Part shown: piece after piece, positions 1,431 through 61,624 of the stretch
Numbering within the stretch: position 1 is the stretch's first letter
How the letters are laid out: every line of letters begins with the position of its first letter
NCBI GenBank assembly: GCA_964434055.1
Contig: CAYSSY010000001.1
Location: forward strand, 5,094-69,093
Direction: 5' to 3'
Source of the DNA: an uncultured Gammaproteobacteria bacterium
GTDB taxonomy: Bacteria > Patescibacteriota > Patescibacteriia > UBA2196 > CAYSSY01
DNA length: 64,000 nucleotides
Notes under the pieces: generated by a model
What the model was told of the DNA's origin: nothing
The model's database searches: none
What the model saw: the letters and a program-made list of their open reading frames with translations, nothing else
Made by a program: the position numbers and the translations under genes

Positions 1431-1454
1431 GCAACACATTCGCAACATAAAAAA

Positions 1455-1497
1455 AGCGGATCGAACTCTTTAAGAGTGAGATCCGCTTCATTTTTTT
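1455..1497. terminator. Bidirectional rho-independent terminator (GCGGATC...GATCCGC stem, A-run and T-run)
   Basis: aaaaaGCGGATCgaactctttaagagtgaGATCCGCttcattttttt. Sits between convergent genes 825..1430(+) and 1507..1947(-). Confidence 0.6.
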
Positions 1498-1506
1498 ATA
1501 AGAACT

Positions 1507-1947
1507 TTAAGGATTAGTTCGAGTGGCATTTTCTAGAATCAAAAAGATAGTATAAGTCACTGAATAAGCGGCAAAAATTAACAGCAACCCGATGCCCGCA
1601 TTCTTAATGGTCTTTAAAGCGGTAGTAATTTGCTCTTCATTTCCCGCGGCAGTCATCCAGCGAACGCCAGCAATAACAATCAAGACTAAAAATATAATAC
1701 CCACTAAAGATAAAACAAAACGCACGCCCTGAGCGATCACTAATGGTAATGGTAAATTGGAAACCTGAAAACCCAAACGTCCCATAACTTCGCCAATCTT
1801 TGAAGTTATCTCGCCTCTCAAACTTGTATCAGGAGGCGGGGGAGGCGGCGTACTCTGAGCCAATGAAATCTGAGGCAACAAACAGAAACAAAAAATTATT
1901 AAAATAAAAACTTTTAAACTCAAAATGGCTTTGTTGTTATAATTCAT
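1507..1947 (-). CDS. T4SS-pilin-like (VirB2/TrbC-like) small secreted two-helix protein, paralog 1 of tandem array
   Basis: Sec signal peptide (ISLAQS cleavage region), a poly-Pro linker, then two hydrophobic helices flanking the conserved motif VRWMTAAGNEEQ. Shares its core with the next three ORFs. Confidence 0.55.
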   Translation of the reverse strand: MNYNNKAILSLKVFILIIFCFCLLPQISLAQSTPPPPPPDTSLRGEITSKIGEVMGRLGFQVSNLPLPLVIAQGVRFVLSLVGIIFLVLIVIAGVRWMTAAGNEEQITTALKTIKNAGIGLLLIFAAYSVTYTIFLILENATRTNP

Positions 1948-1952
1948 AAATT

Positions 1953-2393
1953 TTAAGGAGTTGGGGTTGTTACTGGCGTAGTCGCTTTAAAAAGGATGTC
2001 AATCACAAACCAGGTAATGATCCCTGATAAGAAGATAACTACCAAACCGCCAGCGGCATTTACAATAATCTTATGAGCTTTTTCAATATGTTGCTCATTA
2101 CCGCCAGCCGTCATCCAAATGACGCCACCATAAATAATCAAAACAAAAAATATTACTCCGAGCAATCCTAAAAGATAAAAAATAACATCGCCAATGACTT
2201 CAGCCAGCCTAATATCCTCTCCGGAAGCGGTGGAATAGCCAGCCTGACCAGCAGTTTGATTTAACATATCACCGGCCTGATCAACACTGGGCACAGGTTC
2301 CTCTGCTGTTTGTGCTAAGAGCTCGGGTATAAAAATACTTGAAGTAAAAATTATAATCAAAGCTAGAACTAAATAGGAAATTATATTTTTCAT
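1953..2393 (-). CDS. T4SS-pilin-like small secreted two-helix protein, paralog 2
   Basis: Signal peptide, variable N-terminal region, and the core GGVIWMTAGGNEQHIEKAHKIIVNAAGGLVVIF. Confidence 0.55.
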   Translation of the reverse strand: MKNIISYLVLALIIIFTSSIFIPELLAQTAEEPVPSVDQAGDMLNQTAGQAGYSTASGEDIRLAEVIGDVIFYLLGLLGVIFFVLIIYGGVIWMTAGGNEQHIEKAHKIIVNAAGGLVVIFLSGIITWFVIDILFKATTPVTTPTP

Positions 2394-2408
2394 ATTATAA
2401 CATTTAAT

Positions 2409-2846
2409 TTAAGTGGCGGGGGTAGAAATCTTGGAAAGATTAACTATTCGGTCTAAAACATAAGCGGTAATCACATAAGCTAAAACTATGATCACTAAAC
2501 CAATCGTTGCATTAATTACAATCTTTTTACCTTTGCCAACTTGTTCCTCGTTGCCCGCCGCCGTCATCCAGGTAAACCCACCAAAAATAATTAAAATAAA
2601 AAAAATTACACCCAGAAAACCTAAAACAACGCGGATCATGTTACCAATAAAAATCGCTAAACTTGGATCAGAACCCTTTTCAATTAAACCACCTTTTTCT
2701 GCAGTATTTTTTAAAGTATTAATCGGGTTAACTTGCTGAGCGGAAACGAATAATGGCTGGACTAAAAAAACAAAACAAACAGAAATGACCAAAGCTGATA
2801 AAAAGTATTTTTTAAAATAAGGCATAGGGACTTTGATAATTTTCAA
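2409..2846 (-). CDS. T4SS-pilin-like small secreted two-helix protein, paralog 3. The track start is TTG; an alternative ATG start is at 2825.
   Basis: Core GGFTWMTAAGNEEQVGKGKKIVINATIGLVIIV. The upstream region carries the AATTTTCAATT repeats. Confidence 0.5.
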   Translation of the reverse strand: MKIIKVPMPYFKKYFLSALVISVCFVFLVQPLFVSAQQVNPINTLKNTAEKGGLIEKGSDPSLAIFIGNMIRVVLGFLGVIFFILIIFGGFTWMTAAGNEEQVGKGKKIVINATIGLVIIVLAYVITAYVLDRIVNLSKISTPAT

Positions 2847-2935
2847 TTCTTAATTTTCAATTTTCATTGAATTTTCAATGAGTCAGTTTTTAAACACCTT
2901 CGTCATTGTAAATTGGAAATTAAAAATTGAAAATT
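2838..2935. promoter_or_regulatory. Cluster of 11-mer AATTTTCAATT repeats (3 direct copies, 1 perfect inverted copy, variants) upstream of pilin-like paralog 3
   Basis: aattttcaatt at 2838, 2852, about 2870. The inverted copy aattgaaaatt is at 2925-2935. A variant aattggaaatt is at 2911. Confidence 0.4.
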
Positions 2936-3004
2936 GTACTTAAAAGAGCCGATACCGGCTTTAGGTTTCCCGGTACCGGCCCCAAACAAATTTCAATTTA
3001 ATCT

Positions 3005-3379
3005 TTAGGTCGCAGATGTTAAAACTCTGAAGATGAAGACAGTAACTGCATAAGCGACGAAGATAATAATCAAACCAATAACGCCAGCACCAATTGTTTT
3101 TTTGGCTGAACCAATTGCTTCTTCGTTACCAGCAGCAGTCATCCAGCGAAAACCGCCAATTAAGATAATAACCAATGCCACTATACCCAAAATACCCAAA
3201 GCGACGTTAATAATTGCGGCCACAGTATCTCTAACATCTTTAGTACCTAGACCGGCATTTTGGCCGTAGCCAACGCCCCATTTTGAATCAACACCAGTTT
3301 GAGCAGAAACAACCACTGGCAAAACAAGCAAAGAAACTAAGAATAAACTTAATGCGTATTTCTTAATATTTTTAGTCAT
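3005..3379 (-). CDS. T4SS-pilin-like small secreted two-helix protein, paralog 4
   Basis: Signal peptide VSAQTG. Core GGFRWMTAAGNEEAIGSAKKTIGAGVIGLIIIF. Hairpins GCCGatacCGGC and CCGGTACCGG follow the stop. Confidence 0.55.
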   Translation of the reverse strand: MTKNIKKYALSLFLVSLLVLPVVVSAQTGVDSKWGVGYGQNAGLGTKDVRDTVAAIINVALGILGIVALVIILIGGFRWMTAAGNEEAIGSAKKTIGAGVIGLIIIFVAYAVTVFIFRVLTSAT

Positions 3380-3618
3380 AAATTTTATCTATACTTAAAT
3401 TTTATTATTCTGGCTGGGAAAATGAGGATATCAGGAAATATTAAATTATTTATGTGTCTTAGATAAATAATTACTAAAATAAAACGTTTAACGTGCGACC
3501 TTTTGTTTTATTATATAAGAATTATTAAAAAATGTCAAATTTTATCTGGATTAATTTTATTATAACAAAAAAGATAGAAAAATTATAGGAAACAGCAATA
3601 AAAAATAAAAGAATTAAC

Positions 3619-4119
3619 TTACTTCTGACACTCGATTTTTGACCACGGGGACTTAACGGCTTTGGCTAATCGATCGTTAAATTTAGTGGTACCAGCACTC
3701 CAGTCAGTGGTAAACATTCCAATAATCATGCCAATTAATTGCCAGGCGGCCAAAACAAAAATTATTCCGAGAAAAGTATGCAGAATTAATTTTTTATTCT
3801 TATTTATGCTTTCCGCATTCCCCCAATTCATTACTAATCCTACACCAGCCCAAATCAACATTACCATGGCGACACCACTGACACTCATTAAAATTAAACG
3901 AGCTGCCTGAAAAAAAATCGCTACAAAATCGCAGACATTACAATTGCCGTTGCAATAACAGTCATCGCTGACTTCGTGCATTAAATTCCAAATATTATCA
4001 TTTAGCGAAGGATCACAGGTTTGCTGCGCCCGAACCGGTAAAGCAAACATTAACAAGCTGCTGATTAAAATTCCGGCCAGCCCGAGAAAAAATATTTTTT
4101 TTGTAAAAAAATTAAACAT
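3619..4119 (-). CDS. Divergent Cys-rich member of the same two-helix pilin-like family
   Basis: N-terminal Cys cluster (CDPS...CYCNGNCNVCDF), then two helices flanking VMNWGNAESINKNKK. This mirrors the WMTAAGNEE architecture. The closest paralog is 36439..37347. Confidence 0.5.
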   Translation of the reverse strand: MFNFFTKKIFFLGLAGILISSLLMFALPVRAQQTCDPSLNDNIWNLMHEVSDDCYCNGNCNVCDFVAIFFQAARLILMSVSGVAMVMLIWAGVGLVMNWGNAESINKNKKLILHTFLGIIFVLAAWQLIGMIIGMFTTDWSAGTTKFNDRLAKAVKSPWSKIECQK

Positions 4120-4137
4120 AAAAATAATAAATATTCT

Positions 4138-5532
4138 CTACCTTAAAGTTTGAGTAACTTGTTGAGCAGTAAAATTAATAACCTCATTAGCTGGTTTTTG
4201 ATTAACAACGACATCCTTAATCATATTTTTAAAAGCATCTCTGGCATAACCGACATTCATGCCCTTATACCAACTCTTGGCAGTCAATGCCTGGTTAGCA
4301 AAAACAGTTATTTCTGGATCAGCAAACTGTTTTTCTAAAACGCTTCTTAAAGCGGCCGGTTTCTTAGCTAAACTCAGGTATCGTTCGGCATTCTGGGTTG
4401 AAGTTAAATAGGAAACAAAACCCCATGCTTCGTCTGGATATTTAGTTTTTTTAGAAACCGTCTGCAACCAGTAGCTGGCATAATTGGTTTCATAACCAGA
4501 GGTATCCATACCGTTTGAATTTATGTGCGGCACTTTCACTACTCCCCAGTTTAAACGTGAACCTTGGGCTTTAATAAAAGGAATTTGATAGGCATAACCA
4601 AGCATCATACCCAAATTGCCGCGGACAAAAGCTTCTTGAGCTTCGGGCATTGTTTCATTCCAGGTATAGGCCTCCCGTGAGGGCATAGCAAAATCTGAAT
4701 AAAAACGCACAGCCTCAGCTCCGGGATAATAACTACTGTTCTGCGCATAGCTAGTCGGCTGATTAAAAGTAACTGATCCATTTGCAGCATCAAACATTTG
4801 AGTGCCGTTTTGCAACATCAATAATGAAATAATGTCAAAAATATTATTAACATTATCGATGCCCCCAAAAGCTAAGCCTGACCGGATGATATTACCTTCA
4901 TTATCTTGAAGAGTAATTTTTTTTGATGCTTCCAAAACTTCAGCCCAAGTCTGTGGTGGGTTAAAAACTTTTGCCTGATCAAGCAGGTCGCGGTTATAAA
5001 AAAGGGCCAGGGTATCAACTGATAAAGGTAAACCTAAAATTTCTCCTTTATCATTAATAACATCGCCAGCCACTACATCAACAAAATCACGTTTTATAGT
5101 TTGTGGAGTATAAGTCGGAGTTTCCCGAAAAAAAGCTTTTTCTACCTGACCGGTTCTAGAATAACTTTCGGCATAAGGCAGTTTAATCTTAGCTGGTAAT
5201 GGTAAAATTTTATTGTTATATTTTTTAACCCAATTATTATGAATAGTAAAGATATCAGGGCCCTCATCGGCTGCCCAGCCTTCAAGCAAAGCTTGCTCGT
5301 ATTCCTCATAACGCAACAAGCGATAATTAATGGTTATGTTGGGGTGCGATTTTTTAAAATCAGCTAATATCGCCTGAAAATTTTCTTGACCTTCATATAC
5401 CTGCCACCAATTTAAAGTAATTGGGGTTTTTAAAGATTTAACTGCAGCCAGGTCACCACTTTTAGTACAGCTTAACCCGGTAGTAGAAAAAACGATTAGT
5501 ATTAAAAATAAAATATAAACCCTTTTTTTCAT
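4138..5532 (-). CDS. Extracellular solute-binding lipoprotein (ABC transporter family-1 substrate-binding protein, sugar-type), orphan
   Basis: Lipobox LSC after the signal peptide. Length 464 aa, with a composition typical of SBP_bac_1. No permease or ATPase gene is adjacent. Confidence 0.6.
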   Translation of the reverse strand: MKKRVYILFLILIVFSTTGLSCTKSGDLAAVKSLKTPITLNWWQVYEGQENFQAILADFKKSHPNITINYRLLRYEEYEQALLEGWAADEGPDIFTIHNNWVKKYNNKILPLPAKIKLPYAESYSRTGQVEKAFFRETPTYTPQTIKRDFVDVVAGDVINDKGEILGLPLSVDTLALFYNRDLLDQAKVFNPPQTWAEVLEASKKITLQDNEGNIIRSGLAFGGIDNVNNIFDIISLLMLQNGTQMFDAANGSVTFNQPTSYAQNSSYYPGAEAVRFYSDFAMPSREAYTWNETMPEAQEAFVRGNLGMMLGYAYQIPFIKAQGSRLNWGVVKVPHINSNGMDTSGYETNYASYWLQTVSKKTKYPDEAWGFVSYLTSTQNAERYLSLAKKPAALRSVLEKQFADPEITVFANQALTAKSWYKGMNVGYARDAFKNMIKDVVVNQKPANEVINFTAQQVTQTLR

Positions 5533-8158: not shown

Positions 8159-9559
8159 TTAATTTCTGTTGCCCAGACATTGTTTAAGATTATGACTATT
8201 TTGTGTTTTGCTGACAACTATCATCATACCAATCAGCAACCAAAACAAAACCGCTAAGTCATTTTTAAAATATGGCACATCGACTAAACCGTGAACAAGC
8301 AAGGCTATCATAGATGCCATCAATACGGTTGAAAATTTACAATCAATGACTGTTGTCTGTCGTTTGTTGTCTGTCGTTTGTTGTCTGTCGTTTGTTGTCT
8401 TTCTAAAACCAGCGACATAAAACCACCCGACTATTATTATAAAAGCAGTTAATCCTAACAAACCAGTTTCAGACCAAAAAGTCAAAAAAATGTTATGAGG
8501 ATATAAAAATATTTCAATATACTGCTTCTGGTGAAATGACGCCAGCGCGCTTTGATAACCATTAATACCCGAACCGAGTAATGGTCGTGTCTTTAGCATT
8601 TTAACAGTTTCACTCCACATTTCAAGACGAGTGGAAATTGAATCACCTCCAACAACTGTGGTGTCGCCTTTAAAATTCGGCAAGCCATTCATTAATATAT
8701 AAAAAAATAAAAATAAAAAAACAATAATTATGAATCCTAAAAAATATTTTCTAAACGGCTTATAAAAAAAGGCATAGAAAATAATACCCACTAAAACTGC
8801 CAATAATCCGCCTTTTGATTTAGTAAAATAAATAACGGTAAACCCCAAGATACAAGATAAAATTAACAATAAATTTTCAATTCTTAATTTCCAATTTTTA
8901 CTCAATTCCTTGACTCTCAATTTTTGCTTCTCAATCCCAGCTACAAAAAAACCCAACAACATTATAACTACTGGTGCCAGATAAAGCGCTAAGGCATTCG
9001 GATACGTAAAAATTGATGTTACTCGCCTGGTTGCCTCAGCTGCCCAAAAAGGATTAGTAATAAATTCACCGGTAAATTTTTGATACAAAGCAAACAATGA
9101 CAAGATTAAAACATTTAAACCTAAAACTGCGATTACTTTTCTAAAATCCTCTTTGTTCATGATCGAAATAAAAACAATAAAAAATAAAAATGGCTCTAAA
9201 AAATACGCGCGCCACAAACCGACGGCCGAATATAAGTTAGGCGACATAAAAATAGAAATAATTGATGCAATCAATAACAATGAACAGCCAACTAACAGTA
9301 ACTTAAAATTTATAATTTTAGATTTAAAATTGCTAATTATTTCTTTAGCGTCTCCGTATTTTAATGCTCTAATGAAAAAAACCACAAATAAAATCAAAAT
9401 TTCAAACTCCAATATGGTTGTTGGTAAACCAAAAACTTTAAAACGCACTAAATATAAAGGCAATGTCAAAATAACTAAATAAACACTATTCTTCAGATTT
9501 TTAAAAGAAAGAATTAAAAAAATTATCAAATAAATGGTAATAAAAAAAAGTTTAAGCAT
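8159..9559 (-). CDS. O-antigen ligase / Wzy-like polytopic membrane protein
   Basis: 466 aa, more than 10 predicted TM helices. Overlaps the downstream flippase gene by 8 bp, so the two form an operon. Confidence 0.5.
   Translation of the reverse strand: MLKLFFITIYLIIFLILSFKNLKNSVYLVILTLPLYLVRFKVFGLPTTILEFEILILFVVFFIRALKYGDAKEIISNFKSKIINFKLLLVGCSLLLIASIISIFMSPNLYSAVGLWRAYFLEPFLFFIVFISIMNKEDFRKVIAVLGLNVLILSLFALYQKFTGEFITNPFWAAEATRRVTSIFTYPNALALYLAPVVIMLLGFFVAGIEKQKLRVKELSKNWKLRIENLLLILSCILGFTVIYFTKSKGGLLAVLVGIIFYAFFYKPFRKYFLGFIIIVFLFLFFYILMNGLPNFKGDTTVVGGDSISTRLEMWSETVKMLKTRPLLGSGINGYQSALASFHQKQYIEIFLYPHNIFLTFWSETGLLGLTAFIIIVGWFYVAGFRKTTNDRQQTTDNKRQTTVIDCKFSTVLMASMIALLVHGLVDVPYFKNDLAVLFWLLIGMMIVVSKTQNSHNLKQCLGNRN
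8351..8400. repeat. 14-bp tandem repeat (tgttgtctgtcgtt x3.5) inside the coding sequence of 8159..9559
   Basis: Three full copies at 8351, 8365 and 8379, plus a partial copy. It encodes the repeated TTDNKRQ motif near the C-terminus. Confidence 0.8.
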
Positions 9560-10988
9560 GATTGCCGTTCTTACCTTTAATGAAATCTACTGGATTGAAA
9601 GTTCCTTTTTTAAAAACACCAAAAAAATATAAACTACTAAAATAAACAACGCCACCTAAAACGATAGACAGCAACAGACCTCTTTGACTAAAAAATATGA
9701 TCGTCGCCATTACTAAACTGGCTAAAAAACTTAAAAAACTATTCTTAAATTTAATTTTTATTTTTGTTTCCTGTCGGACATTCGCCCAAGAAGCCACAAG
9801 AATGAAAGCTTCAACAAAAACAGTTATCAGCGCTGCTGCCCAATATGAATAACGAGGAATAAAAATAAAATATAAACTAAGCGCACTCAAAGCAGCTACA
9901 ACATAATATTTCATCATTGTCTTCTGACGATTAACGGCAACAACGGCAAAAGTCGAAAGGTGTGCCCAAAAAATTATTCCAGTCGCGACAATTAATATTC
10001 TTAATATCCCAGCTGAGGCTATAAATTTGTCGCCAGCAATTAACATTATTAAAGGATTTGCTAAAATAATAGTTCCTAAAACCATAGGGCAAACAATCAG
10101 TGACAAAAAATCAAAAGCTTTCTGAAAAAAATTCTGGAATTCTATTTGGTTTTTCAAGGACCAAGCGCGAGAAAGATAAGGTGAAACCAAACCCATAAAA
10201 ATCGCTGGAAATGCAATAAGAACTTCTAAAATTTTGTATGGCGCGCCATAAATTCCTACTTCTGACTGTGGACGATAAAGTGAGAGAATAATAGTATCAG
10301 CTTTAAAATAAATCATTGAAAAAACCATATAAGTCGCCACTGGCCATACTTTTTTAAAAGTATCACGCCAAATATTTTTATCAAAAGCAAAAGAAAAAGA
10401 TAAAATTTTTCTGGCAAAATAAAAATTAATTAGAAAATGGACAGCCGTACCAGCCACAACAGTTAGAAGTACGGTCAAAAAACCAGCCTGACTCCTAATC
10501 ACTATCAAAGTCAGTGCTAAAATAATAATCTTGCCACAAATTTCTGCCAGAGCTGGATATTTTGTTTTTAACTGTTGTTGAAAAAGTGCCACCAGGATCT
10601 GATCAAGCATCATTAAAAATACCGGAATGGCAATAATTAACGTACCATTTTTTATTTCTTGATCATAAGGAAAAAGAAAAATAAGTACACCGGCTAAAAA
10701 CATAAAAAAAAGACTGGAAAAAAATCGCATGGTAAAAATATTGCTATAAAATCTTTTCTGATCTAAATTATCACGCCCTAATTCATTAACTGACACTAGA
10801 TAAAGTCCTAGATCACCAATGGTTGAAAAGAAAAAAAGATAGGAAAAAACGGTGGTATAATAGCCATAACCTTCCGGACCTAAATAGCGAGTCAATAACC
10901 CGATAATGAACAAACCTAAAGCCGAACCGGAAAATTTTCCCAGTGTATGAATAAGTGTATTTTTAGCAATGGAAAGCTTTAAACTCAT
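9552..10988 (-). CDS. Polysaccharide biosynthesis protein / oligosaccharide flippase (Wzx, MOP superfamily)
   Basis: The N-terminus LKLSIAKNTLIHTLGKFSGSALGLFIIGLLTRYLGPEGYGYY is typical of Wzx. The track start 11024 is TTG; the start was moved to ATG 10988. Confidence 0.7.
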   Translation of the reverse strand: MSLKLSIAKNTLIHTLGKFSGSALGLFIIGLLTRYLGPEGYGYYTTVFSYLFFFSTIGDLGLYLVSVNELGRDNLDQKRFYSNIFTMRFFSSLFFMFLAGVLIFLFPYDQEIKNGTLIIAIPVFLMMLDQILVALFQQQLKTKYPALAEICGKIIILALTLIVIRSQAGFLTVLLTVVAGTAVHFLINFYFARKILSFSFAFDKNIWRDTFKKVWPVATYMVFSMIYFKADTIILSLYRPQSEVGIYGAPYKILEVLIAFPAIFMGLVSPYLSRAWSLKNQIEFQNFFQKAFDFLSLIVCPMVLGTIILANPLIMLIAGDKFIASAGILRILIVATGIIFWAHLSTFAVVAVNRQKTMMKYYVVAALSALSLYFIFIPRYSYWAAALITVFVEAFILVASWANVRQETKIKIKFKNSFLSFLASLVMATIIFFSQRGLLLSIVLGGVVYFSSLYFFGVFKKGTFNPVDFIKGKNGNHA

Positions 10989-11136
10989 AGGTTGATTGTA
11001 GCACCTGACACGCCTTTTTGACAAAAATCTATATAGATATTTTGATTTTTTTATCCACAGTTGACGCTTTAGTAATTATCCTTTATTCTTAATAATGAAA
11101 ATGCCTATCAGACAAAAAAAATTAAACACTTACTGA

Positions 11137-18868: not shown

Positions 18869-20635
18869 TTATTTTTTCTCCTCCAACTTGAGTCTGAATA
18901 ATAACTGCCAAAGATATGTTTGTAATTTGCCATAACTCCAAGTCTGGTTATCAATCCACGTATCGCCCCCTGCCAACACCTTTTCCAGATGATTAACAAC
19001 CGCTTGCCAACCACCAACTTCTCTGCTCACCTCTTCATTGATCACAAAAGGGTCAAAATCTGCAACTGTCTCTGCTATGGGAAGAATGTGGCAAGCACAA
19101 TAGAAAGATTCAGCTAAACCAGCTTCTTCATCTCCGATCGCACCAGCTGCTTCATACAATGAGTCAGCAAAGTCTTGGATTTCAGTGACTGAATACTCCG
19201 GTACCACAGTTGGGCCGCAAATATAGATTGTACCTTGACCAGTAGTGGCATCGTTGACCACTTCAATTGGTACCTGCCAAACCTTGATACAGCGATCAAA
19301 TTTGGCACAGCACTCAAGCTGATGTAAAAACGCCAAGTCAGTCTCAGTACCAATAAATAAGATATCCTCTCGGCTGCAGATCTGCTGAAAATGTTGTCCA
19401 CCGCGACCGCTAGTGTGGTTAAGAGAAGGGAGACCGGCGGAAATATGACCCACAGTATTATACTGAAGTTCCACTAACGCAGCAGCGTTATTGAAATGGG
19501 TATAACTTAACGTTGGAACACGTTCAAAGGATAATCCGGCCACTAAAGGACCAAAGCCAGAAAAACCTGTCTGGGGTACTATCAGCAGATAATTTTTGAG
19601 GATACCGTTAAGATATTCTAGCCAAGAAACATTTTCGTGCGTCCAACCATGTAAACCAGCCCGAACTACAACCTGACAAAACTTCTTGCCATGATTCACG
19701 ATGTCGGTCCCTTGGCACAAAATTACTTTACCTGTGGCTTCATGTGAAATCGGGTCAGGAATTTTATCCTCAAATGGTGCTGCTTGCACAACGGTGATCG
19801 CATCTGGATTAGTATCCGGTGTAGCCCATTCGAGATAATAATTTTTCTGGATTTTAAGTAAGCGCAACGCCTCCCAGAATTTTATCAGTGGCTCGGGTGA
19901 AAAACATCGCCGTAATTCATCAGGCACTGGAATTTCTTCACACTGTCCAGATTCAACATTTATTGCCTGTAAAGTACAAAGATGACTGAGGTTGTAACTG
20001 ATATCAAACATGGTTGGCAACTCTTTGCTAATAACCACCGCTTCAGAATCAACTGCTTTTGTCCCTAAACCCAGACAAACTCGGATTAAACGCTGACCTC
20101 CATAACTCGTGTAAGCACTGCCTGCCAGAAGCGGACAAAAGTACTTACCATAATGACGACCGACCACTGATTGAATCATGACTGCAATACCAAAAGGTGT
20201 ATAGTGTTTTTGGCGATAAGCTCTGGCGTCAGCGCTAAACTCACTGGCAAAAACTGTACATTCAGCCTGCCACAGGAGTTCAAGATTTGATTCCTGGTTT
20301 GCTTTGGGCACAATGAAAACTGTTTTATAAATACCAGTACCGCCCCGCTCACCTCTGGCTGAGGAACGGACAGCTACTGGATAACCTGTTTTGAACCCTG
20401 AAACTAATTCCTGATTAATTGTCAGAAGATCTGGCGGAATTCTGCCACTCAGAACCTGATCTTGATCAGTGTTTTGCTCAAAACCGTTTGTTGCCAAAAA
20501 AGATAAAAAATATTCAACCCCTACTATCTCACCGATAATCGCCTGTAAACCAGCCTGAGATACATCTTGAACAGCGTCTAACAAATCTTGAAATTTGAGA
20601 CCGCCGTCCTGACCGTGTAATTTGTAAAGAGCCAT
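18869..20635 (-). CDS. PEP synthase / pyruvate-phosphate-dikinase-like protein: N-terminal ATP-grasp (PPDK_N-type) domain plus a possible degenerate swivel-His segment. It lacks the C-terminal PEP-binding TIM barrel. GC-rich, likely foreign.
   Basis: PVAVRSSARGE...VFASEFSADARAYR...GIAVMIQSVV...CLGLGTKAV aligns block-wise to the PPDK_N consensus (VAVRSSA, VFASLF..R...YR, AWGLGE). Later, TSGRGGQHFQQICSRED resembles the GGxxSHAAIxARE phospho-His motif. About 47% GC. The track start is TTG; the start was moved to ATG 20635, which has an AAGGAG SD. Terminator hairpin at 18833-18856. Confidence 0.5.
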   Translation of the reverse strand: MALYKLHGQDGGLKFQDLLDAVQDVSQAGLQAIIGEIVGVEYFLSFLATNGFEQNTDQDQVLSGRIPPDLLTINQELVSGFKTGYPVAVRSSARGERGGTGIYKTVFIVPKANQESNLELLWQAECTVFASEFSADARAYRQKHYTPFGIAVMIQSVVGRHYGKYFCPLLAGSAYTSYGGQRLIRVCLGLGTKAVDSEAVVISKELPTMFDISYNLSHLCTLQAINVESGQCEEIPVPDELRRCFSPEPLIKFWEALRLLKIQKNYYLEWATPDTNPDAITVVQAAPFEDKIPDPISHEATGKVILCQGTDIVNHGKKFCQVVVRAGLHGWTHENVSWLEYLNGILKNYLLIVPQTGFSGFGPLVAGLSFERVPTLSYTHFNNAAALVELQYNTVGHISAGLPSLNHTSGRGGQHFQQICSREDILFIGTETDLAFLHQLECCAKFDRCIKVWQVPIEVVNDATTGQGTIYICGPTVVPEYSVTEIQDFADSLYEAAGAIGDEEAGLAESFYCACHILPIAETVADFDPFVINEEVSREVGGWQAVVNHLEKVLAGGDTWIDNQTWSYGKLQTYLWQLLFRLKLEEKK

Positions 20636-20897
20636 CTTAGTCTCCTTCAATTTTATTTTCCATAATCTCAACAGTCACATGTTACTTGAAGGTCAAAAAC
20701 TTGTCAATTTAAACTTTGATTATCATGACCCCAAACACAATTAAATAAAAGATCTAATTATTGGTTTTAATGCTAGTATTTTCAAGATTTTGACTAAATT
20801 GAAAAAACAAACCCTTGACAAGTAGCCAACTAACTCTACTATTAATATTAATAATTTTTCAATTCTAATAATTACCTATTAAAATCAGTATTAATTT

Positions 20898-31188: not shown

Positions 31189-33534
31189 ATGGCTCCCAAG
31201 CTCGGCCAACTAGCACGTATAATTATTGTACCAGTGGTGCTATTTTTTAGCCCACTTTTTGTTTTTGCCCAAGATAGTCAAGTGCTGATCAATGAAGTTC
31301 AGATTGCCGGGCAAACAGCAACCGATGAATTTATAGAGCTTTATAATCTAACAAATCAAAAAATTAGCCTTACCGGTTGGCGACTAGCTAAAAAAACTGC
31401 CAGCGGTAATCTCTATAATCTGGTAACTTCTTTTATAGACGTTAGTATCGAACCAAAAAGTTATTTATTAATTGCTCATAAAGATTTCCAAGCTGATTTT
31501 AATGCCGATGTTTATTATTCAACTTCATCATCAATCGCCGATAATAATACACTGATTATTTACAGTGATGCCGGCAAAACAGTGGTCGACAAAGTTGGTT
31601 GGGGTGAAGCAATAGATTTTGAAGTTAAAGCCGCGCCCAGTCCTAAAAATAAACAAAGTCTCAGTAGAACTAACGGCCTTGACACGGGTGACAATGCGAC
31701 TGATTTTGTTGTTTCAACATCACCATCGCCGAAACAAGAAAACCAAATCACAAGTAACCAACCAACAACTAACAATCAACAAAATTTAGAAACAAATACC
31801 CAACCAAACAATCCAGACGTTTCTAACCAAATCCCAATATACCAAACCTATACCAAGCAAATTTTTTTTAATGAACTTTTGCCTAATCCCGCGGGTAGCG
31901 ACGAAGAAAATGAGTGGTTTGAGTTATTTAATCATTCAAATTTTGAAGTCAATCTTAACGGTTGGATAATTATTGATAATTCCGGCAAAAAATTTATCAT
32001 TAACCAAGAAAAATTGGCCAGTACCACTATCGCCCCCGATGGTTACTTTTTAGTTAAGAGGGGTGTTTCTAATATCAGCCTTAATAATGACAACGATCTC
32101 TTAAAACTCTATCAACCAAATGGCGAATTAATTGATTCTGTTAGTTATAAAGATGAGGCTGGAGAAAACATCGCTTATGCCAGAGATCAGAGAAATAACA
32201 CCTGGTCATGGACAACAACTATTACTCCAGCCGCTAGTAACATAATATCTTCTCCTTCAGAAAAAACTGAAGATGACGGTGAAATCACTCCGGTCGGGGA
32301 TGCAATAAAAACCACGGACAACAAAACATCTTTTACTGAAAAGGCTAATATAGAAAAATTAACTGATTATTCGCGACAAATAATAATTAATGAGGTTTTG
32401 CCGAACCCACAAGGTAATGATGAGGAACATGAATGGATTGAATTAAAAAATCTTACAAGTGAGGTTGTTGATTTGATTGACTGGTTTTTGGCCGATAGTT
32501 CGCGACAATATCAAATCTCTAAAAAAGATTTTAACAATTCAGTGATCCAAGCTAACGGCTATTTTTTGATACCAAGAAAAAATTCTCAACTCGCCCTTAA
32601 TAATTCAGGCACAGAAAAAATACAATTACTGCATCCTGATAAAAATCTTGTTGAAGAAGTTGAGTATTCGGGTCATATTAAAGAAAATGTCAGTTATGCC
32701 CGCGATGAAGATGATTTATGGTTTTGGACCACTGTACCAACACCAGCAGGACCTAATATTATTGTGCTACCAACTGATAAAGAGGTTGAGGAAACCGCTA
32801 CTGATGACAAGCAGGACAAGATACAAATTGATAAACAAACAATTGAGGGGATAGTTATTGCTAAACCGGGCTTATTTGGTGTCACTTACTTTTACATTAA
32901 TGGTTTGAGAATATATTGTGCTAAAAAAGATTTTCCTGAACTTAAAGTCGGTGATAAAATTAAAATGACTGGGGAAATGGATATAATGAATAATATCTCT
33001 GTTTTTAAAATTAAGAATCAGGATGATATTACCATCATCTCCTCAAATAATGCCGTCAACCCACTAATTAAAACCACGGAAAGCTTAACACGTGATGATC
33101 TTAGTAAATTGGTTAAGCTAACCGGACAGATCCTTGATGTTAAAAGTACTAAAATATACCTAGCCGATGATGACGGTGAAATTGTTCTGACAATAAAACC
33201 AAATACTAATATCAAAAAAGAAATCTTTGTGTCTGGTGACCAAATTGCGGCAACTGGCATTGTTTTTACTTCCAGTAATGAATTAACTATCGTGCCCAGA
33301 TCAGAAGCAGATATAGAATTTGTTAATCAAGTGCTGGGCGCGACTAAAAAAAAAGAAACTGTCTTTAACCGACAAAAAAATGATAACTTCAGAAATTATT
33401 TATTCCTAACCCTTGGAGCCATAATTATTATTTCTTTGATATTAATAATCAGAAATCTTCAGGTGATTGCCATCTGGTGGCATGAAAAAAAAGAGGTTTG
33501 GAAAAAAATTAAAGAAATTCTTAATAAACCTTGA
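31189..33534 (+). CDS. Surface protein with three lamin-tail-domain (LTD) repeats, OB-fold-like C-terminal modules and a C-terminal TM anchor
   Basis: Signal peptide. LTD-type repeats: VLINEVQIAGQTATDEFIELYNLTNQKISLTGWRL; IFFNELLPNPAGSDEENEWFELFNHSNFEVNLNGWII; IIINEVLPNPQGNDEEHEWIELKNLTSEVVDLIDWFL. The C-terminal hydrophobic helix is LFLTLGAIIIISLILII. Confidence 0.6.
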   Translation: MAPKLGQLARIIIVPVVLFFSPLFVFAQDSQVLINEVQIAGQTATDEFIELYNLTNQKISLTGWRLAKKTASGNLYNLVTSFIDVSIEPKSYLLIAHKDFQADFNADVYYSTSSSIADNNTLIIYSDAGKTVVDKVGWGEAIDFEVKAAPSPKNKQSLSRTNGLDTGDNATDFVVSTSPSPKQENQITSNQPTTNNQQNLETNTQPNNPDVSNQIPIYQTYTKQIFFNELLPNPAGSDEENEWFELFNHSNFEVNLNGWIIIDNSGKKFIINQEKLASTTIAPDGYFLVKRGVSNISLNNDNDLLKLYQPNGELIDSVSYKDEAGENIAYARDQRNNTWSWTTTITPAASNIISSPSEKTEDDGEITPVGDAIKTTDNKTSFTEKANIEKLTDYSRQIIINEVLPNPQGNDEEHEWIELKNLTSEVVDLIDWFLADSSRQYQISKKDFNNSVIQANGYFLIPRKNSQLALNNSGTEKIQLLHPDKNLVEEVEYSGHIKENVSYARDEDDLWFWTTVPTPAGPNIIVLPTDKEVEETATDDKQDKIQIDKQTIEGIVIAKPGLFGVTYFYINGLRIYCAKKDFPELKVGDKIKMTGEMDIMNNISVFKIKNQDDITIISSNNAVNPLIKTTESLTRDDLSKLVKLTGQILDVKSTKIYLADDDGEIVLTIKPNTNIKKEIFVSGDQIAATGIVFTSSNELTIVPRSEADIEFVNQVLGATKKKETVFNRQKNDNFRNYLFLTLGAIIIISLILIIRNLQVIAIWWHEKKEVWKKIKEILNKP

Positions 33535-36438: not shown

Positions 36439-37347
36439 TTAAATACCACCACATTCTTTAGCACTAACATGGAAATGACCAACGGTATAATAGTTACCGT
36501 CATTATCTTTGGCTTTATATTCTTCATAACGAAAGTTGCCACCACAAATATTCATAACTAAATCCTTCATGGCTATTTGATCTCCATTATCAAAACCTCG
36601 ACTTCTAAAATCAACAGCATAAGATCCGTCGAGTTTTTTGAATGGCCCACCGTAATGACAAGAACCATAACTATGAGCACAGACCGCGTCAGACCAGTTA
36701 TCACGACAAGTTGCTAATCCGGCGTTATCGCTCACAGAAGTAATAACTAATGTCTTACTAGATAATCTAGTATAATTATTCTTTTTTGTATTAATACAAT
36801 TTAACAACTTATAAAGCGAAGGTGAAACATCACCGCACTGACTAGTTTTAATTGAAGTAGCGGTTGCAATACTGGCACAGTTACCGCTGACAATATCTTC
36901 TTCGGTTGGTCTGACAATTTCAATGGTTTCACATTTTGGCACCTGCCACCAACCACGAGAAACAACTAAGCCCTTATTAAGGGTCAACATATTAATAATA
37001 ATGCTAATTAAACTCCATGAAACCATAACTAAACAGACAGCTAAAAGGGTATTAAAAATTAGTTTTTTATTAGCGGCGATCGACTCTTTGTTACCCCAAT
37101 TCATAACTAAACCTATACCACCCCAGATTAATAAAACCAATGCTGCACCGGACATAAAATAAAGAATTAAACGGGCAGCTGATGAAAAAACTGATAAAAA
37201 ATCACATACTGAGCAATCTCCATTATTAACACACTGGAGAGATAGCTCATCAAAAAGACTATAAGCTCTAACTTCAGTCCTAAGCGAAAAAATAAAAATT
37301 AACAATAAGCTAAATATAAAAAATCTGACTTTTATGGTTTTTCTCAT
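36439..37347 (-). CDS. Extended Cys-rich paralog of the two-helix pilin-like family (N-terminal family core + roughly 180-aa Cys-containing C-terminal extension)
   Basis: CSVCDFLSVFSSAARLILYFMSGAALVLLIWGGIGLVMNWGNKESIAANKKLIFNTLLAV closely parallels 3619..4119. Confidence 0.5.
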   Translation of the reverse strand: MRKTIKVRFFIFSLLLIFIFSLRTEVRAYSLFDELSLQCVNNGDCSVCDFLSVFSSAARLILYFMSGAALVLLIWGGIGLVMNWGNKESIAANKKLIFNTLLAVCLVMVSWSLISIIINMLTLNKGLVVSRGWWQVPKCETIEIVRPTEEDIVSGNCASIATATSIKTSQCGDVSPSLYKLLNCINTKKNNYTRLSSKTLVITSVSDNAGLATCRDNWSDAVCAHSYGSCHYGGPFKKLDGSYAVDFRSRGFDNGDQIAMKDLVMNICGGNFRYEEYKAKDNDGNYYTVGHFHVSAKECGGI

Positions 37348-53730: not shown

Positions 53731-54768
53731 TTAGTCCAATTTTCTTACAGATCCACTCGAAGTATCAACTTCGACCAAATCACCGTCATTAAAAATTTGT
53801 GTAGCACATCGTGTTCCAACAACACAAGGAATTCCTAGCTCACGGGAAATGATGGCAGCATGACACATCAAACCGCCCTCATCAGTCACTATCGCTTTAA
53901 CATATTTCAATACTGGCACCAACTGCGGGTTGGTCATGCCAGTAATTAAGATACAATCTTGAGGTAAATCAGGAACGTGACTAAACGACAAATGCAGTTT
54001 AGCACGACCAACTACTTTTTCATTGACCTGATAGGAAACCCGTCCGGTAACTTTTTTTTCAGTCTTATTAACAGACAATTTATCCCTTAAACCCAAATAT
54101 TCATGATCAGTGTGTATGACCCAGTTTTTTCTAAAAACATAACCGCTTTTTCTTTGTAAGAGTGCTGGGGCATTAACAAATTTTTTATTAAAAATCAAAT
54201 TACTAAATTCATCAAAAGTCATAATCTCGATGTCGTCTAGCGCAATTTGAAACTCTTTGCCGGCTTTGATAATCACCTTTTCAAAAAGCAGATGCAAGAC
54301 ACTTAGATAATGGTGAGCCTTTAATCTAAACTGGCCGATAAACTCCAAACGTTTATAGATTCCGGTATTATCTTTTTGTTCTTCCAATGATAAGAGTGAC
54401 GATTCCTCACATAAAACATAGACATCGCATATGTCTTTTATATATGCCAAAAGCATCTGCCACCATTCATTAAAGTACTTACTATCAAATTTGGGAATTT
54501 GTGTTTGGTTAATTTTATCTATCACGACAAACTTTTGTTTCAGTTCATTAAATATTTCCTGCCACTGATCATTGTCTAGTAGATACCGCTTACCCATTAA
54601 ATAAGCTTGCTCCATGCCCGCTTTTGTCAAATAAACAGAGAAAGCTTTCTGTTCACCATCATAAAGGCAAACATAGTCATTATTACCATAATCAGTCTTT
54701 TCGAATAGATAGCTGACCAACGGTAATGGAAACTGTTCTTTAAAATTTAAATAATATTCTTGATTCAT
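53731..54768 (-). CDS. Protein with C-terminal PEP-utilising-enzyme mobile (swivel phospho-His) domain. The N-terminal 250 aa are uncharacterised.
   Basis: ITGMTNPQLVPVLKYVKAIVTDEGGLMCHAAIISRELGIPCVVG matches the GGxxSHAAIxARExGIPxVVG consensus. Confidence 0.6.
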   Translation of the reverse strand: MNQEYYLNFKEQFPLPLVSYLFEKTDYGNNDYVCLYDGEQKAFSVYLTKAGMEQAYLMGKRYLLDNDQWQEIFNELKQKFVVIDKINQTQIPKFDSKYFNEWWQMLLAYIKDICDVYVLCEESSLLSLEEQKDNTGIYKRLEFIGQFRLKAHHYLSVLHLLFEKVIIKAGKEFQIALDDIEIMTFDEFSNLIFNKKFVNAPALLQRKSGYVFRKNWVIHTDHEYLGLRDKLSVNKTEKKVTGRVSYQVNEKVVGRAKLHLSFSHVPDLPQDCILITGMTNPQLVPVLKYVKAIVTDEGGLMCHAAIISRELGIPCVVGTRCATQIFNDGDLVEVDTSSGSVRKLD

Positions 54769-59940: not shown

Positions 59941-60651
59941 CTATTTCTCGTGTTTATTTAAAAAATAAATCTGTTGAGCAATGGTTATAATTGTTGTCAT
60001 AAACCAATACAACGCTAGACCGCTGGGAAATTTAAGACCAAAATAAAAAGTTAAAAGCGGCATTAAAAAAATCATCTGTTTATTCATTATTGCAGCCATG
60101 TTTTCATCTTTAGCTGTTTCAATTTTTGGTGATTTTTTTGTCATCAACATTTTTGCTGACCACCATTGTGCAATAGCGGCTAAACCAGCCAATATAACAT
60201 TCGGCTGACTTAAATCGATAATATTTAAGGAAATGGTATTAATTTGACCGGGGTTACCAATAAAATTATATATTAAATTAAAATTAGCAGATTTAAGCCC
60301 GCTTTGAAAGGATTGATATATGGCAATAAAAAATGGCAACTGAATTAGTAATTGCAAGCAAGAAGAAAATGGATTAATTTTTTGTTGTCTATAAAGCTCC
60401 ATTGTTGCCCGAGATAAATCCTCTTTGTTGTGAGCATGTTTCTTTTTTAATTCTTCAAGTTTTGGTTGAAGTTCTTGTAAAATTTTTTGCGATTTTATTC
60501 TCTTCAAAGATAGAGGAAATAGAATCAAATTAATAATAAGAGTTAAAACAACAATAGCCACCCCTATATCTTTCCCTGGTATAATATTATATAAAAAAAT
60601 TAATAAATTAAAAATCGGTTGATATAAAAAAGTATTATAAAAATTGATCAT
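59941..60651 (-). CDS. yidC: Membrane protein insertase YidC (short YidC/Oxa1 type)
   Basis: 236 aa. 5 TM helices. Gene order is rpmH-rnpA-yidD-yidC. Confidence 0.8.
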   Translation of the reverse strand: MINFYNTFLYQPIFNLLIFLYNIIPGKDIGVAIVVLTLIINLILFPLSLKRIKSQKILQELQPKLEELKKKHAHNKEDLSRATMELYRQQKINPFSSCLQLLIQLPFFIAIYQSFQSGLKSANFNLIYNFIGNPGQINTISLNIIDLSQPNVILAGLAAIAQWWSAKMLMTKKSPKIETAKDENMAAIMNKQMIFLMPLLTFYFGLKFPSGLALYWFMTTIITIAQQIYFLNKHEK

Positions 60652-60941
60652 TTTGTTATATAATTATTTTTTTTGCTAATATTAGCCATTTTTTTTAACA
60701 AAGGGTCATACCCGCCACTGTTAAAGGGATTACATTTTAATAATCTTTTAATTGTCAAAAAAATACCTAATATTAGCCCTTTTTTAGTTATGGCTTGGTA
60801 GCTATAATCTGAACAGCTTGGATAAAAGCGACAGCCATAAAAAGGAAAAATGTGTTTAAGTGGACCATGATCAAATGATAAAGTTTTTTGATAAAATACA
60901 ATAAGCATTAAAAAAAAACTTCTAACGGGATTCTTTTTCAT
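60648..60941 (-). CDS. yidD: Membrane protein insertion efficiency factor YidD
   Basis: FYQKTLSFDHGPLKHIFPFYGCRFYPSCSDYSYQAI. Confidence 0.85.
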   Translation of the reverse strand: MKKNPVRSFFLMLIVFYQKTLSFDHGPLKHIFPFYGCRFYPSCSDYSYQAITKKGLILGIFLTIKRLLKCNPFNSGGYDPLLKKMANISKKNNYITK

Positions 60942-61266
60942 TTTTTATAATTTTATTCAATAATTCGTTCAGTTTTTGTGTTTGCTCTTTTTGTGAATAA
61001 TTTAAACATTTTTTTCTTGCAATCACTAGATACAACCCTTCACCAATGTGAGACAAATTGGCTTTTATGTTTTTTTTAATTTGTCTTCTAATTTTGTTGC
61101 GCACTGTTGAAAGACCGCTAATTTTGTTAGAAATTATAATGCCAAATTTTTTTTTCTTATCTGCTTGTCGGAATTTTACAAAAAAAGCTTCATTTTTATA
61201 AACTTTGCTTGATGTAAATTTTAAAAAATCACTTTTGGAAATTAAGCGACTTTCTTTTTTAAGCAT
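60922..61266 (-). CDS. rnpA: Ribonuclease P protein component
   Basis: KKKFGIIISNKISGLSTVRNKIRRQIK, in the rpmH-rnpA context. The track start is TTG 61275; ATG 61266 was used. Confidence 0.75.
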   Translation of the reverse strand: MLKKESRLISKSDFLKFTSSKVYKNEAFFVKFRQADKKKKFGIIISNKISGLSTVRNKIRRQIKKNIKANLSHIGEGLYLVIARKKCLNYSQKEQTQKLNELLNKIIKNEKESR

Positions 61267-61288
61267 AGTAGACAAAAATTCTATTAAT

Positions 61289-61426
61289 CTATACCGCTAA
61301 TTTAACCCTCTTCTTGAAGCGCCTCCCTTTAATAACCTTGGCTCCGTTTTTTGTACTCATGCGAACTAAAAAACCGTGTGTTTTTTGTCTTTTTCTCTTG
61401 TTTGGTTGGTATGTTCTTTTTGGCAT
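61289..61426 (-). CDS. rpmH: 50S ribosomal protein L34 (45 aa; below the ORF-track threshold)
   Basis: Hand-translated as [45 protein letters not shown], the canonical L34. Confidence 0.9.
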
Positions 61427-61624
61427 CTTTTGTATTATTAATTAAATTATTTATTTAATTGTAACAATTTACACCTTTTTGGTCAATTAACTTATTAATA
61501 AACATTCTATCAACATATTATTAACATAATTTGCTATTTTAATGATTTTGTGATAATTTTTTTTGTGTTATTATTAAAGAAATACAAAATAATACTTCAT
61601 TTTAAATTATAAAATAATAAACCC

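Follow-up and report, generated by a model that had tools for sequence, protein, structure and literature searches.

We analysed a 64,000-nucleotide stretch of contig CAYSSY010000001.1 (assembly GCA_964434055.1), hereafter the window, in which four tandem minus-strand genes (paralogs 1 to 4) and a divergent, Cys-rich fifth gene (gene 5) encode small pilin-like proteins related to T4SS_pilin (PF18895), a family of type IV secretion system (T4SS) pilins that is characteristic of the ultra-small Patescibacteria. The array is ancient and ordered, and gene 5 forms a conserved pair with the adjacent gene of a lipoprotein that has the fold of a solute-binding protein (SBP). On balance, we consider it probable that the products are VirB2-like subunits that are exported by Sec, cleaved, stored as membrane hairpins and assembled by a monoderm-type T4SS encoded elsewhere in the genome, with one major subunit, several accessory subunits and a Cys-rich adaptor linked to the SBP. 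An earlier note on this DNA had put the array forward as a candidate for a poorly described system, which it is not, as arrays of this kind were already reported (PMC10633639) and surveyed (PMC12102498).

All five minus-strand open reading frames (ORFs) described in the earlier note were recovered with the same coordinates (Table 1); for paralog 3, the internal ATG giving the 138-aa form was preferred by gene callers on identical contigs. Hydropathy profiles contained three hydrophobic segments in each of the five proteins, corresponding to the h-region of a signal peptide and two transmembrane (TM) helices. The leaders are of the Sec type, 26-36 residues long with Ala at the end, and an Ala-Gln site was found in 5/5 proteins, with a small residue at position -1 in all and at -3 in four. 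Behind the leader come about 20-45 non-conserved residues and then the two hydrophobic helices of the mature part, with a polar turn and a short amphipathic stretch, in which a Lys is conserved, between them; the chain ends in a short tail. In the AlphaFold2 (AF2) model of paralog 1, a helix-turn-helix spans residues 67-143 (helices 67-99 and 104-143) with a predicted local distance difference test (pLDDT) score of about 90, and the leader and the variable segment are of low confidence. The combination of a Sec signal with a two-helix hairpin, as first proposed, is therefore borne out by hydropathy, the Ala-Gln sites and the AF2 model, with cleavage itself predicted from those sites.

Alignment of the paralogs showed that they have the polar turn motif W-M-T-A-(A/G)-G-N-E in common. 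The motif is real, but the core had been called almost invariant, which overstated its conservation: core identity between the four paralogs is 38-55%, and only about 20 columns are invariant. The N-terminal segments are indeed more variable than the core, as had been claimed, with a mean pairwise identity of 11% for the mature N-terminal segment versus 46% for the core. Whole-protein identity within the array is 35-43%, a level at which synonymous substitutions are saturated; divergence between paralogs was gauged by identity per region and by conservation across genomes.

By profile score, membership in PF18895 is established. Paralogs 1 to 4 scored 40.5, 29.6, 32.0 and 34.7 bits, all above the gathering cut-off of 26.6 bits, in support of the family assignment made in the earlier note, and gene 5 stayed below it at 21.1 bits (E 3e-4). 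Gene 5 and a sixth family member found further along the window were tied to the family through phmmer and through a hidden Markov model (HMM) built from the four paralogs, and an orthologue of gene 5 in a related locus (L004:3592-4005) passed PF18895 at 36 bits. The proteins are short and divergent, and word-indexed homologue searches were insensitive, returning 13 matches for paralog 1 and only itself for gene 5; in the full phmmer scan used for gene 5 in their place, 1,520 cluster representatives matched at E<=1e-3.

Direct membership in TrbC/VirB2, the other family that had been put forward, was not borne out. None of the five proteins reached the PF04956 cut-off of 27.9 bits, the best being paralog 1 at 16.1 bits (E 0.014), and a protein from a related locus (L070:1572-2057) scored 21.1 bits. 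The best NCBIfam match of all five was NF045849, with 29.8, 24.4, 25.7, 35.9 and 16.4 bits; these matches span nearly the entire 80-position model and are all below its threshold of 40 bits. When 154 family members were compared by hhalign with seven annotated virB2/trbC genes retrieved from plasmids, the hairpins aligned in register, with the W-M of the family opposite the ISWMFG of VirB2 (score 23.1, P 0.0027, probability 11%); the controls scored lower, at most 19.6 for 30 local shuffles and 14.0 for the reversed profile. A PDB sequence search with the family profile gave zero matches. Remote similarity is thus weak, and a relationship to classical VirB2 is plausible. We also considered an identity as type IV pilins or type II secretion system (T2SS) pseudopilins. 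A class III signal has a short basic leader, cleavage after Gly, Glu5 and a single N-terminal hydrophobic helix; no such signal was present in these proteins, whose Sec leaders end in Ala and whose mature parts have two helices, and this identity was rejected.

To place the array among its relatives, one genome per species was scanned for WMTA[AG]GNE, which yielded at least 589 loci, 78 of which were kept for comparison; the best match to the window in the genome-collection scan was 56% identical. The 78 loci come from Patescibacteria metagenome-assembled genomes labelled Falkowbacteria, Komeilibacteria, Kerfeldbacteria, Magasanikbacteria, Uhrbacteria or 'Parcubacteria'. Many of the related loci (L003-L080) carry the title 'uncultured Gammaproteobacteria' (binchicken/SRP co-assemblies); these titles look like mislabelling, as gene content and synteny match other Patescibacteria loci, the checkable ones of which are ABY1. 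The organism that carries the window would accordingly be a Patescibacterium of class ABY1, Falkowbacteria-like, as placed through its relatives alone.

Gene order within the arrays is conserved. With the HMM from the four paralogs, 4-12 tandem family genes were detected in 72/78 loci; relatives typically have at least six array genes, and the array of the window is a reduced one, 1+3 rather than 1+5. Paralog 4 had its best match at array position 1 in 49/78 loci, at about 50% identity over the full length, and the best matches of paralog 1 in relatives were mostly the last gene of the array. Genes at position 1 were the most conserved class, with 0.78 bits per residue and 95% coverage versus 0.57 and 81% for the middle genes. 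In ABY1 genomes that bear the labels of several candidate phyla, the paralogs have their orthologues at corresponding positions.

Regulatory elements were also predicted around the array. The TTGACA-17-TATAAT sequence upstream of paralog 4 was the only 12/12 match in the 6.4 kb scanned. The spacer behind the first array gene contains GC-rich hairpins, one of them terminator-like (AGCCGGTATCGGCT followed by CTTTT at 2960..2947), and it folds with a minimum free energy of -47 kcal/mol (z = -8.1 versus shuffles). In relatives, a median of 92 nt separates gene 1 from the next gene, versus 6.5 nt at the other gaps, and these spacers too are far more stable than shuffled sequence (median z = -5.6). 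An AT-rich inverted repeat also lies between the first and second array genes (2838-2870 / 2903-2935, 33-nt arms, 88% complementary). At the other end of the array, the hairpin behind paralog 1 is an inverted repeat (I4) with 22-nt arms, 82% complementary, flanked by an A-run and a T-run. Taken together, the conservation of position 1, the spacer and the promoter suggest a highly expressed first subunit and attenuated or separately controlled accessory subunits, and paralog 4 is likely to be the major subunit.

Table 1 Positions of the array genes, the elements around them and the two associated genes in the window.
Feature	Position	Strand	Length	Description
Hairpin	1449..1493	.		Between the ends of a convergent 201-aa gene and paralog 1; candidate bidirectional terminator
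Paralog 1	1507..1947	-	146 aa	Last gene of the array; poly-Pro N-terminal segment
Paralog 2	1953..2393	-	146 aa	Array position 3; acidic N-terminal segment, Thr/Pro-rich C-tail
Paralog 3	2409..2846	-	145 aa from TTG, or 138 aa from ATG at 2825	Array position 2
Structured spacer	2847..3004	-		After the first array gene; candidate attenuator or mRNA-stabilising element
Paralog 4	3005..3379	-	124 aa	Array position 1; shortest and best conserved; candidate major subunit
Sigma-70-type promoter TTGACA-17-TATAAT	3510..3538	-		About 130 nt upstream of paralog 4; predicted
Gene 5	3619..4119	-	166 aa	S-type (SBP-adjacent) Cys-rich pilin-like protein
SBP lipoprotein gene	4138..5532	-	464 aa	SBP_bac_1 solute-binding fold; signal ending ...TGLSC
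Sixth family member	36439..37347	-	302 aa	Gene-5-type hairpin (CSVCDF, LIWGGIGLVMNWGNKES) with a Cys/His-rich extracellular domain of about 170 aa

The SBP gene had been regarded as an orphan that flanks the array. Comparison with the related loci argues otherwise: an orthologue was found in 50/78 loci, where it was the commonest neighbour when all neighbour proteins were clustered, and the next same-strand gene after it was a pilin-family gene in 50/50, usually with a gap of 10 nt or less. In the relatives this following gene is of the low-scoring divergent type to which gene 5 belongs. The surroundings of the two genes vary. GalU (23 loci), ComM (13) or an SMC-like gene (6) is located upstream of the SBP gene, and the pair is followed by the array in 26 loci and by an HTH_25 gene in 24, the array in the latter beginning 4.5 kb further on, behind unrelated genes. 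Identity of the SBP among the pair-bearing loci goes down to 29%. The 50/50 adjacency supports that the SBP gene and the divergent pilin-like gene are a conserved pair. In the window, the start codon of gene 5 lies 18 nt past the SBP stop, and the two are probably co-transcribed. No mention of the SBP gene and its coupling to a pilin-like gene was found in the published literature searched.

The SBP product of the window matched Pfam SBP_bac_1 at 113 bits and had distant PDB matches to sugar-binding proteins. A lipobox-like motif G-[FL]-[GS]-C follows the leader in 39/50 SBP orthologues, which are therefore probably lipoproteins. Pfam scans detected no ABC permease or ATPase beside the SBP among its neighbours in the window, and none accompanies the orthologues of the relatives; despite its SBP_bac_1 fold, we therefore rejected its assignment as the binding protein of an ABC importer with adjacent permease and ATPase genes.

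The product of gene 5 starts with a signal peptide, which is followed by a Cys-rich module whose last residues, CNVCDF, directly precede helix 1; then come the core LIWAGVGLVMNWGNAES and the C-terminal tail SPWSKIEC. The family architecture is kept around MNWGNAES, and the mature part contains six Cys, five N-terminal and one C-terminal. The subgroup is marked by CxxCDF directly before helix 1 and by a 'PW..C' tail, and gene 5 matched the SBP-adjacent member best in 40 related loci; of the other loci, 49 contain a member of this kind. Among the S-type proteins having any C-terminal Cys, seven of ten have an odd Cys count in both the N- and the C-terminal extracellular parts, which suggests a disulfide linking the two ends of the hairpin. 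Such joined ends recall the head-to-tail cyclisation of VirB2/TrbC.

Members of the family evidently act as anchors, in the membrane or in a filament, to which extracellular modules of various kinds are attached. The earlier note listed five genes and had missed the sixth member at 36439-37347. As a paralog of gene 5, it shares 55% identity over the hairpin and the CxVCDF and LVMNWGN motifs with that protein; its score with the array HMM was 19 bits, and it had no Pfam match. Its Cys/His-rich domain has invariant Cys, His and Asp residues (SCHYGGP...DGSYAVDF, GHFHVS) and is conserved in five metagenomic homologues (P0019-P0023); it had no Pfam, NCBIfam or PDB sequence match, and its AF2 model was poor (pLDDT 30-78). 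A relationship to LAS-type metallopeptidases (H...D, HxH) would be a tentative lead for this domain. At the locus of one homologue (L092), the gene comes after a MacB-type ABC exporter operon. Long family members were also seen at L060, L066 and L076 and in the proteins P0030, P0047, P0057 and P0060; in L060:3279-5366, the hairpin is fused to a Big_5 Ig-like domain in a protein of 695 aa, and some relatives have 3-8 hairpin repeats per polypeptide, up to 820 aa.

The array does not lie in a T4SS cluster. A Pfam scan of every window ORF of at least 110 aa identified no homologue of VirB4, VirD4, VirB6, VirB3, VirB8 or TrsD in the 64 kb, and T4SS machinery was also lacking beyond the window edges, over about 9 kb on the left side and about 4 kb on the right. 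The absence of VirB4, VirD4 and VirB6 that had been noted near the array thus extends over the whole window and both flanks. The region is ordinary chromosome, with NusA, trigger factor, PolA, PNPase, RuvB and 11 tRNAs. The left flank contains a DPBB+M23 hydrolase, a 392-aa unknown protein, DUF2079, an H+-PPase, TruB and UvrB, and the right flank dnaN, a phosphoribosyltransferase, a nucleoside phosphorylase and a penicillin-binding protein. In many Patescibacteria, T4SS clusters are reported near dnaA (PMC12102498); no such cluster was found within 4 kb here.

This arrangement recurred in the related loci. No VirB4- or VirD4-like protein was found within 10 kb of any of the 78 arrays, and the few Walker-A proteins near them were FtsH, IF-2, ComM, SMC, DnaA and one PilB-type ATPase. 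(An FtsH homologue beside one array, L059:9-2864, has its AAA module interrupted by an intein with an Intein_splicing domain.) Six source genomes of the 78 loci are included in Table S1 of the published survey (PMC12102498), and all six are of class ABY1 and VirB4-positive. In the rows of its Table S3 for two genomes, Magasanikbacteria GW2011_GWA2_37_8 has VirB4/TrsD/VirB3 at CDS 794-796 and a single listed VirB2 at CDS 380, and Falkowbacteria GW2011_GWF2_38_1205 has VirB2 matches at CDS 589-595 and VirB4 at CDS 789 (PMC12102498). The 78 loci and these examples indicate that arrays distant from virB4, with the ATPase module elsewhere, are the rule in ABY1.

Pilin arrays as such are well documented. 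Quinonero-Coronel et al. (2025) searched 3,035 Patescibacteria genomes with PF18895, PF04956 and CONJScan profiles, and detected VirB2-like pilins in 1,948 assemblies that contain VirB4, 1,135 of which had the pilin gene near virB4; the arrays, 441 in all with 2-11 genes each, were spread over 383 assemblies, and members of an array were 25% identical on average and 54% at most (PMC12102498). In Southlakia epibionticum, the pilin arrays were reported as essential (PMC10633639), the essential T4SS cluster holding six divergent pilins (PMC10633639, PMC12857230), and a 2025 review highlights the arrays and speculates on a pilus conduit (PMC12857230). ABY1 arrays may have been under-counted in the survey. 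In our analysis, 6/8 array ORFs of GW2011_GWA2_37_8 (L070) passed PF18895. In the rows of Table S3 considered here, PF18895 matches are listed only when they are near virB4.

Variation within the population was concentrated outside the array. The strain of the window is also present in the Logan samples SRR27676563/5 and in ENA ERZ27257500. An independent ENA contig from the same population (L088) was 99.7% identical over 12.5 kb, and 35 of its 37 variant positions fell in the Wzy/Wzx genes, with zero differences in the array or the SBP gene; two Logan contigs also carried the array without differences. The surface-polysaccharide genes concerned are Wzy-like 8159-9559 and Wzx-like 9552-11024, where strain variation is concentrated rather than in the pilins; the ENA contig lacks 14 nt at 8351-8364, a deletion that would put the Wzy-like gene out of frame, and has clustered substitutions at 10492-10527. 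Four Logan contigs end inside the inverted repeat between the first and second array genes, two at its centre (L001/L002, 2887) and two in its left arm (L090/L091, 2861). A reading of these breaks as population variation was rejected, since they coincide with the 33-nt-arm repeat and are thus assembly artefacts.

Under the reading that we favour, each protein would be exported by Sec and cleaved after Ala at the Ala-Gln site by signal peptidase I. The two-helix hairpin would then reside in the membrane, with the variable N-terminal segment and the C-tail outward and the conserved WMTAAGNEE...K loop at the cytoplasmic face, and this membrane pool would be assembled into a surface filament or a wall-spanning conduit by a T4SS of the monoderm type (VirB4/TrsD/VirB3), the genes of which would lie in another part of the genome. 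The subunits would form a differentiated rather than redundant set: paralog 4 as the major subunit with its own promoter and the structured spacer behind it, and the three tightly packed downstream genes as accessory subunits with differing exposed N-termini. The gene 5 product would probably anchor or couple the SBP lipoprotein to the assembly, for example as an adaptor at the base or tip that binds a host-derived glycan or sugar. A bolder extension, which we offer as doubtful but worth stating, is that in ABY1 the SBP lipoprotein and the Cys-rich, probably disulfide-stapled VirB2-like protein are an obligate pair by which a VirB2-like filament of several subunits is nucleated, capped or anchored, a binding protein of the ABC type having been recruited to recognise ligands for a T4SS-derived surface organelle, in the recognition of host glycans or the capture of nutrients, and the sixth member displaying an unclassified, possibly metal-binding domain on the same anchor.

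Several observations weigh against the assembly of the array products into a T4SS-dependent filament. A T4SS ATPase or channel gene is absent from the window and its near flanks, PF04956 is not reached (16 versus 27.9 bits) and the profile-profile probability is only 11%, and a bare helical hairpin is not discriminated by fold searches. The promoter and terminator calls are consensus matches only. A pilus is a prediction or possibility in the published work, neither paper reporting the observation of one (PMC10633639, PMC12857230). The proteins could instead belong to a T4SS that makes no pilus, as structural or channel-lining subunits that stay embedded in the membrane or form a short stalk across a thin monoderm wall, a part played by small hairpin proteins in the conjugation systems of Gram-positive bacteria and Mollicutes. 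This would suit the best NCBIfam match of all five proteins, a pilin-like conjugal transfer protein of Mollicutes integrative and conjugative elements (ICEs), as well as the monoderm MPF-FATA type of Patescibacterial VirB4, whose systems are generally without pili (PMC12102498), and the T4SS review in which a pilus-like structure is merely a possibility (PMC12857230). However, a variable extracellular segment of 30-45 residues and differentiated paralogs are more typical of filament subunits, and the strong promoter that one member has to itself points to a structural protein of high copy number, so that we regard a T4SS without a pilus as unlikely.

The constant linkage of the family in this clade is to an SBP-fold lipoprotein and not to T4SS genes, which likewise counts against filament assembly by a T4SS and leaves room for a T4SS-independent role. 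A complex for the capture, sensing or import of a host-derived sugar or glycan, in which the hairpin proteins are the membrane partner of the SBP lipoprotein, would account for the 50/50 adjacency, for 0/78 arrays within 10 kb of VirB4 and for an SBP without a cognate ABC permease nearby. We nevertheless judge it improbable: two-TM hairpins with cleaved signals are not known as transporter permeases, the tie to the SBP is confined to the divergent S-type, with the main array 4.5 kb off in about half of the loci, and the Saccharimonadia homologues lie within the T4SS cluster (PMC10633639). The low identity of the N-terminal segments (11% versus 46% for the cores), together with the analogy to Bartonella and Anaplasma raised in the published survey (PMC12102498), could also fit diversity-generating or antigenic-variation cassettes, that is, recent duplicates with fast-evolving N-termini that are swapped or differentially expressed to evade or match hosts. 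The earlier note had suggested a diversification of filament subunits, possibly for episymbiont attachment or antigenic variation, but the paralogs are old positional orthologues across ABY1 genomes labelled as several candidate phyla, and the array was invariant in other samples of the same population, the variant positions of the ENA contig lying almost entirely (35/37) in Wzy/Wzx. Nor are there long DNA repeats between the copies to drive recombination, the longest being 38 nt at 79%. We consider this explanation very improbable.

Some further features of the window were recorded. Near its left edge, a VirB1-like role was considered for a DPBB+M23 hydrolase (31-783) and the 201-aa secreted protein next to paralog 1 and was rejected; these genes are convergent to the array, a terminator-like hairpin lies between, and they did not recur in the 78 loci. 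The GC content over the two genes (300-1500) is 0.44-0.56 versus about 0.35 in the rest of the window, a rise that could reflect foreign origin or a Gly/Ala/Arg-rich composition. Pieces of a phosphoenolpyruvate (PEP)-utilising enzyme were found in two separate genes at 18869-20671 (minus strand, PPDK_N only) and 53731-54768 (minus strand, mobile domain only); in relatives, a complete PEP synthase/PPDK of 803 aa is encoded next to the array. A plus-strand gene at 31189-33534 encodes a large protein of 781 aa, secreted or located at the surface, in which lamin-tail domains occur three times (LTD, 166 bits). The replication-origin region is located at the right edge (59941-62992), with yidC, yidD, rnpA and rpmH, then dnaA (61625-62992), and dnaN beyond.

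Patescibacteria make up a large share of uncultivated bacteria, and their T4SS with its unusual pilin array belongs to the small number of systems with a demonstrated essential role in epibiotic growth. The present analysis offers three handles: array genes in conserved order, the first of them likely to encode the major subunit; a pilin-like subfamily that is invariably partnered with an SBP-fold lipoprotein; and members with extra extracellular domains. If the SBP does belong to the organelle, it would point to the host feature that is recognised and would make Patescibacterial T4SS function more directly testable.

Among known systems, the array of S. epibionticum ML1 (Saccharimonadia) and the 441 surveyed arrays are the closest, sharing PF18895, tandem divergent paralogs, a signal peptide and the two-helix hairpin, and the identity found here (35-43%) is within the published range (mean 25%, maximum 54%). 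Unlike in S. epibionticum, the array lies outside the T4SS cluster, here and in 78/78 related loci (the classifiable ones being ABY1), and the unit of the window is headed by the gene of an SBP-fold lipoprotein and a Cys-rich member of the subfamily. Conjugative pilins of the VirB2/TrbC type polymerise with phospholipid into an extracellular pilus, and some members are cyclised head to tail. Compared with A. tumefaciens VirB2, RP4 TrbC (PF04956) and the archaeal Ced-type pilin (A. pernix, PDB 8dfu), the proteins studied here differ from VirB2/TrbC in scoring below the PF04956 cut-off with weak profile-profile similarity, in a longer polar loop of about 20 residues with a conserved GNEE motif, in the presence of multiple paralogs where classical systems have one major pilin, and in not being adjacent to virB1, virB3 or virB4. 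The likeness to the Mollicutes ICE family Mbov_0395 / MMCAP2_0565 (NF045849), which belongs to a monoderm-type T4SS, is consistent with the MPF-FATA ancestry of Patescibacterial VirB4, but the Mollicutes proteins are encoded by single genes inside ICE conjugation modules, and the scores here, 16-36 bits, are below 40. In chaperone-usher and type IV pilus operons, the major-subunit gene is followed by a stem-loop and then by minor-subunit genes; the array would resemble them in operon logic only, with a promoted first gene, a hairpin and packed accessory genes, as the proteins and assembly pathways are unrelated. The type of array is thus one already described in Patescibacteria, to which the SBP pairing, the ordered architecture and the domain-bearing sixth member are added here.

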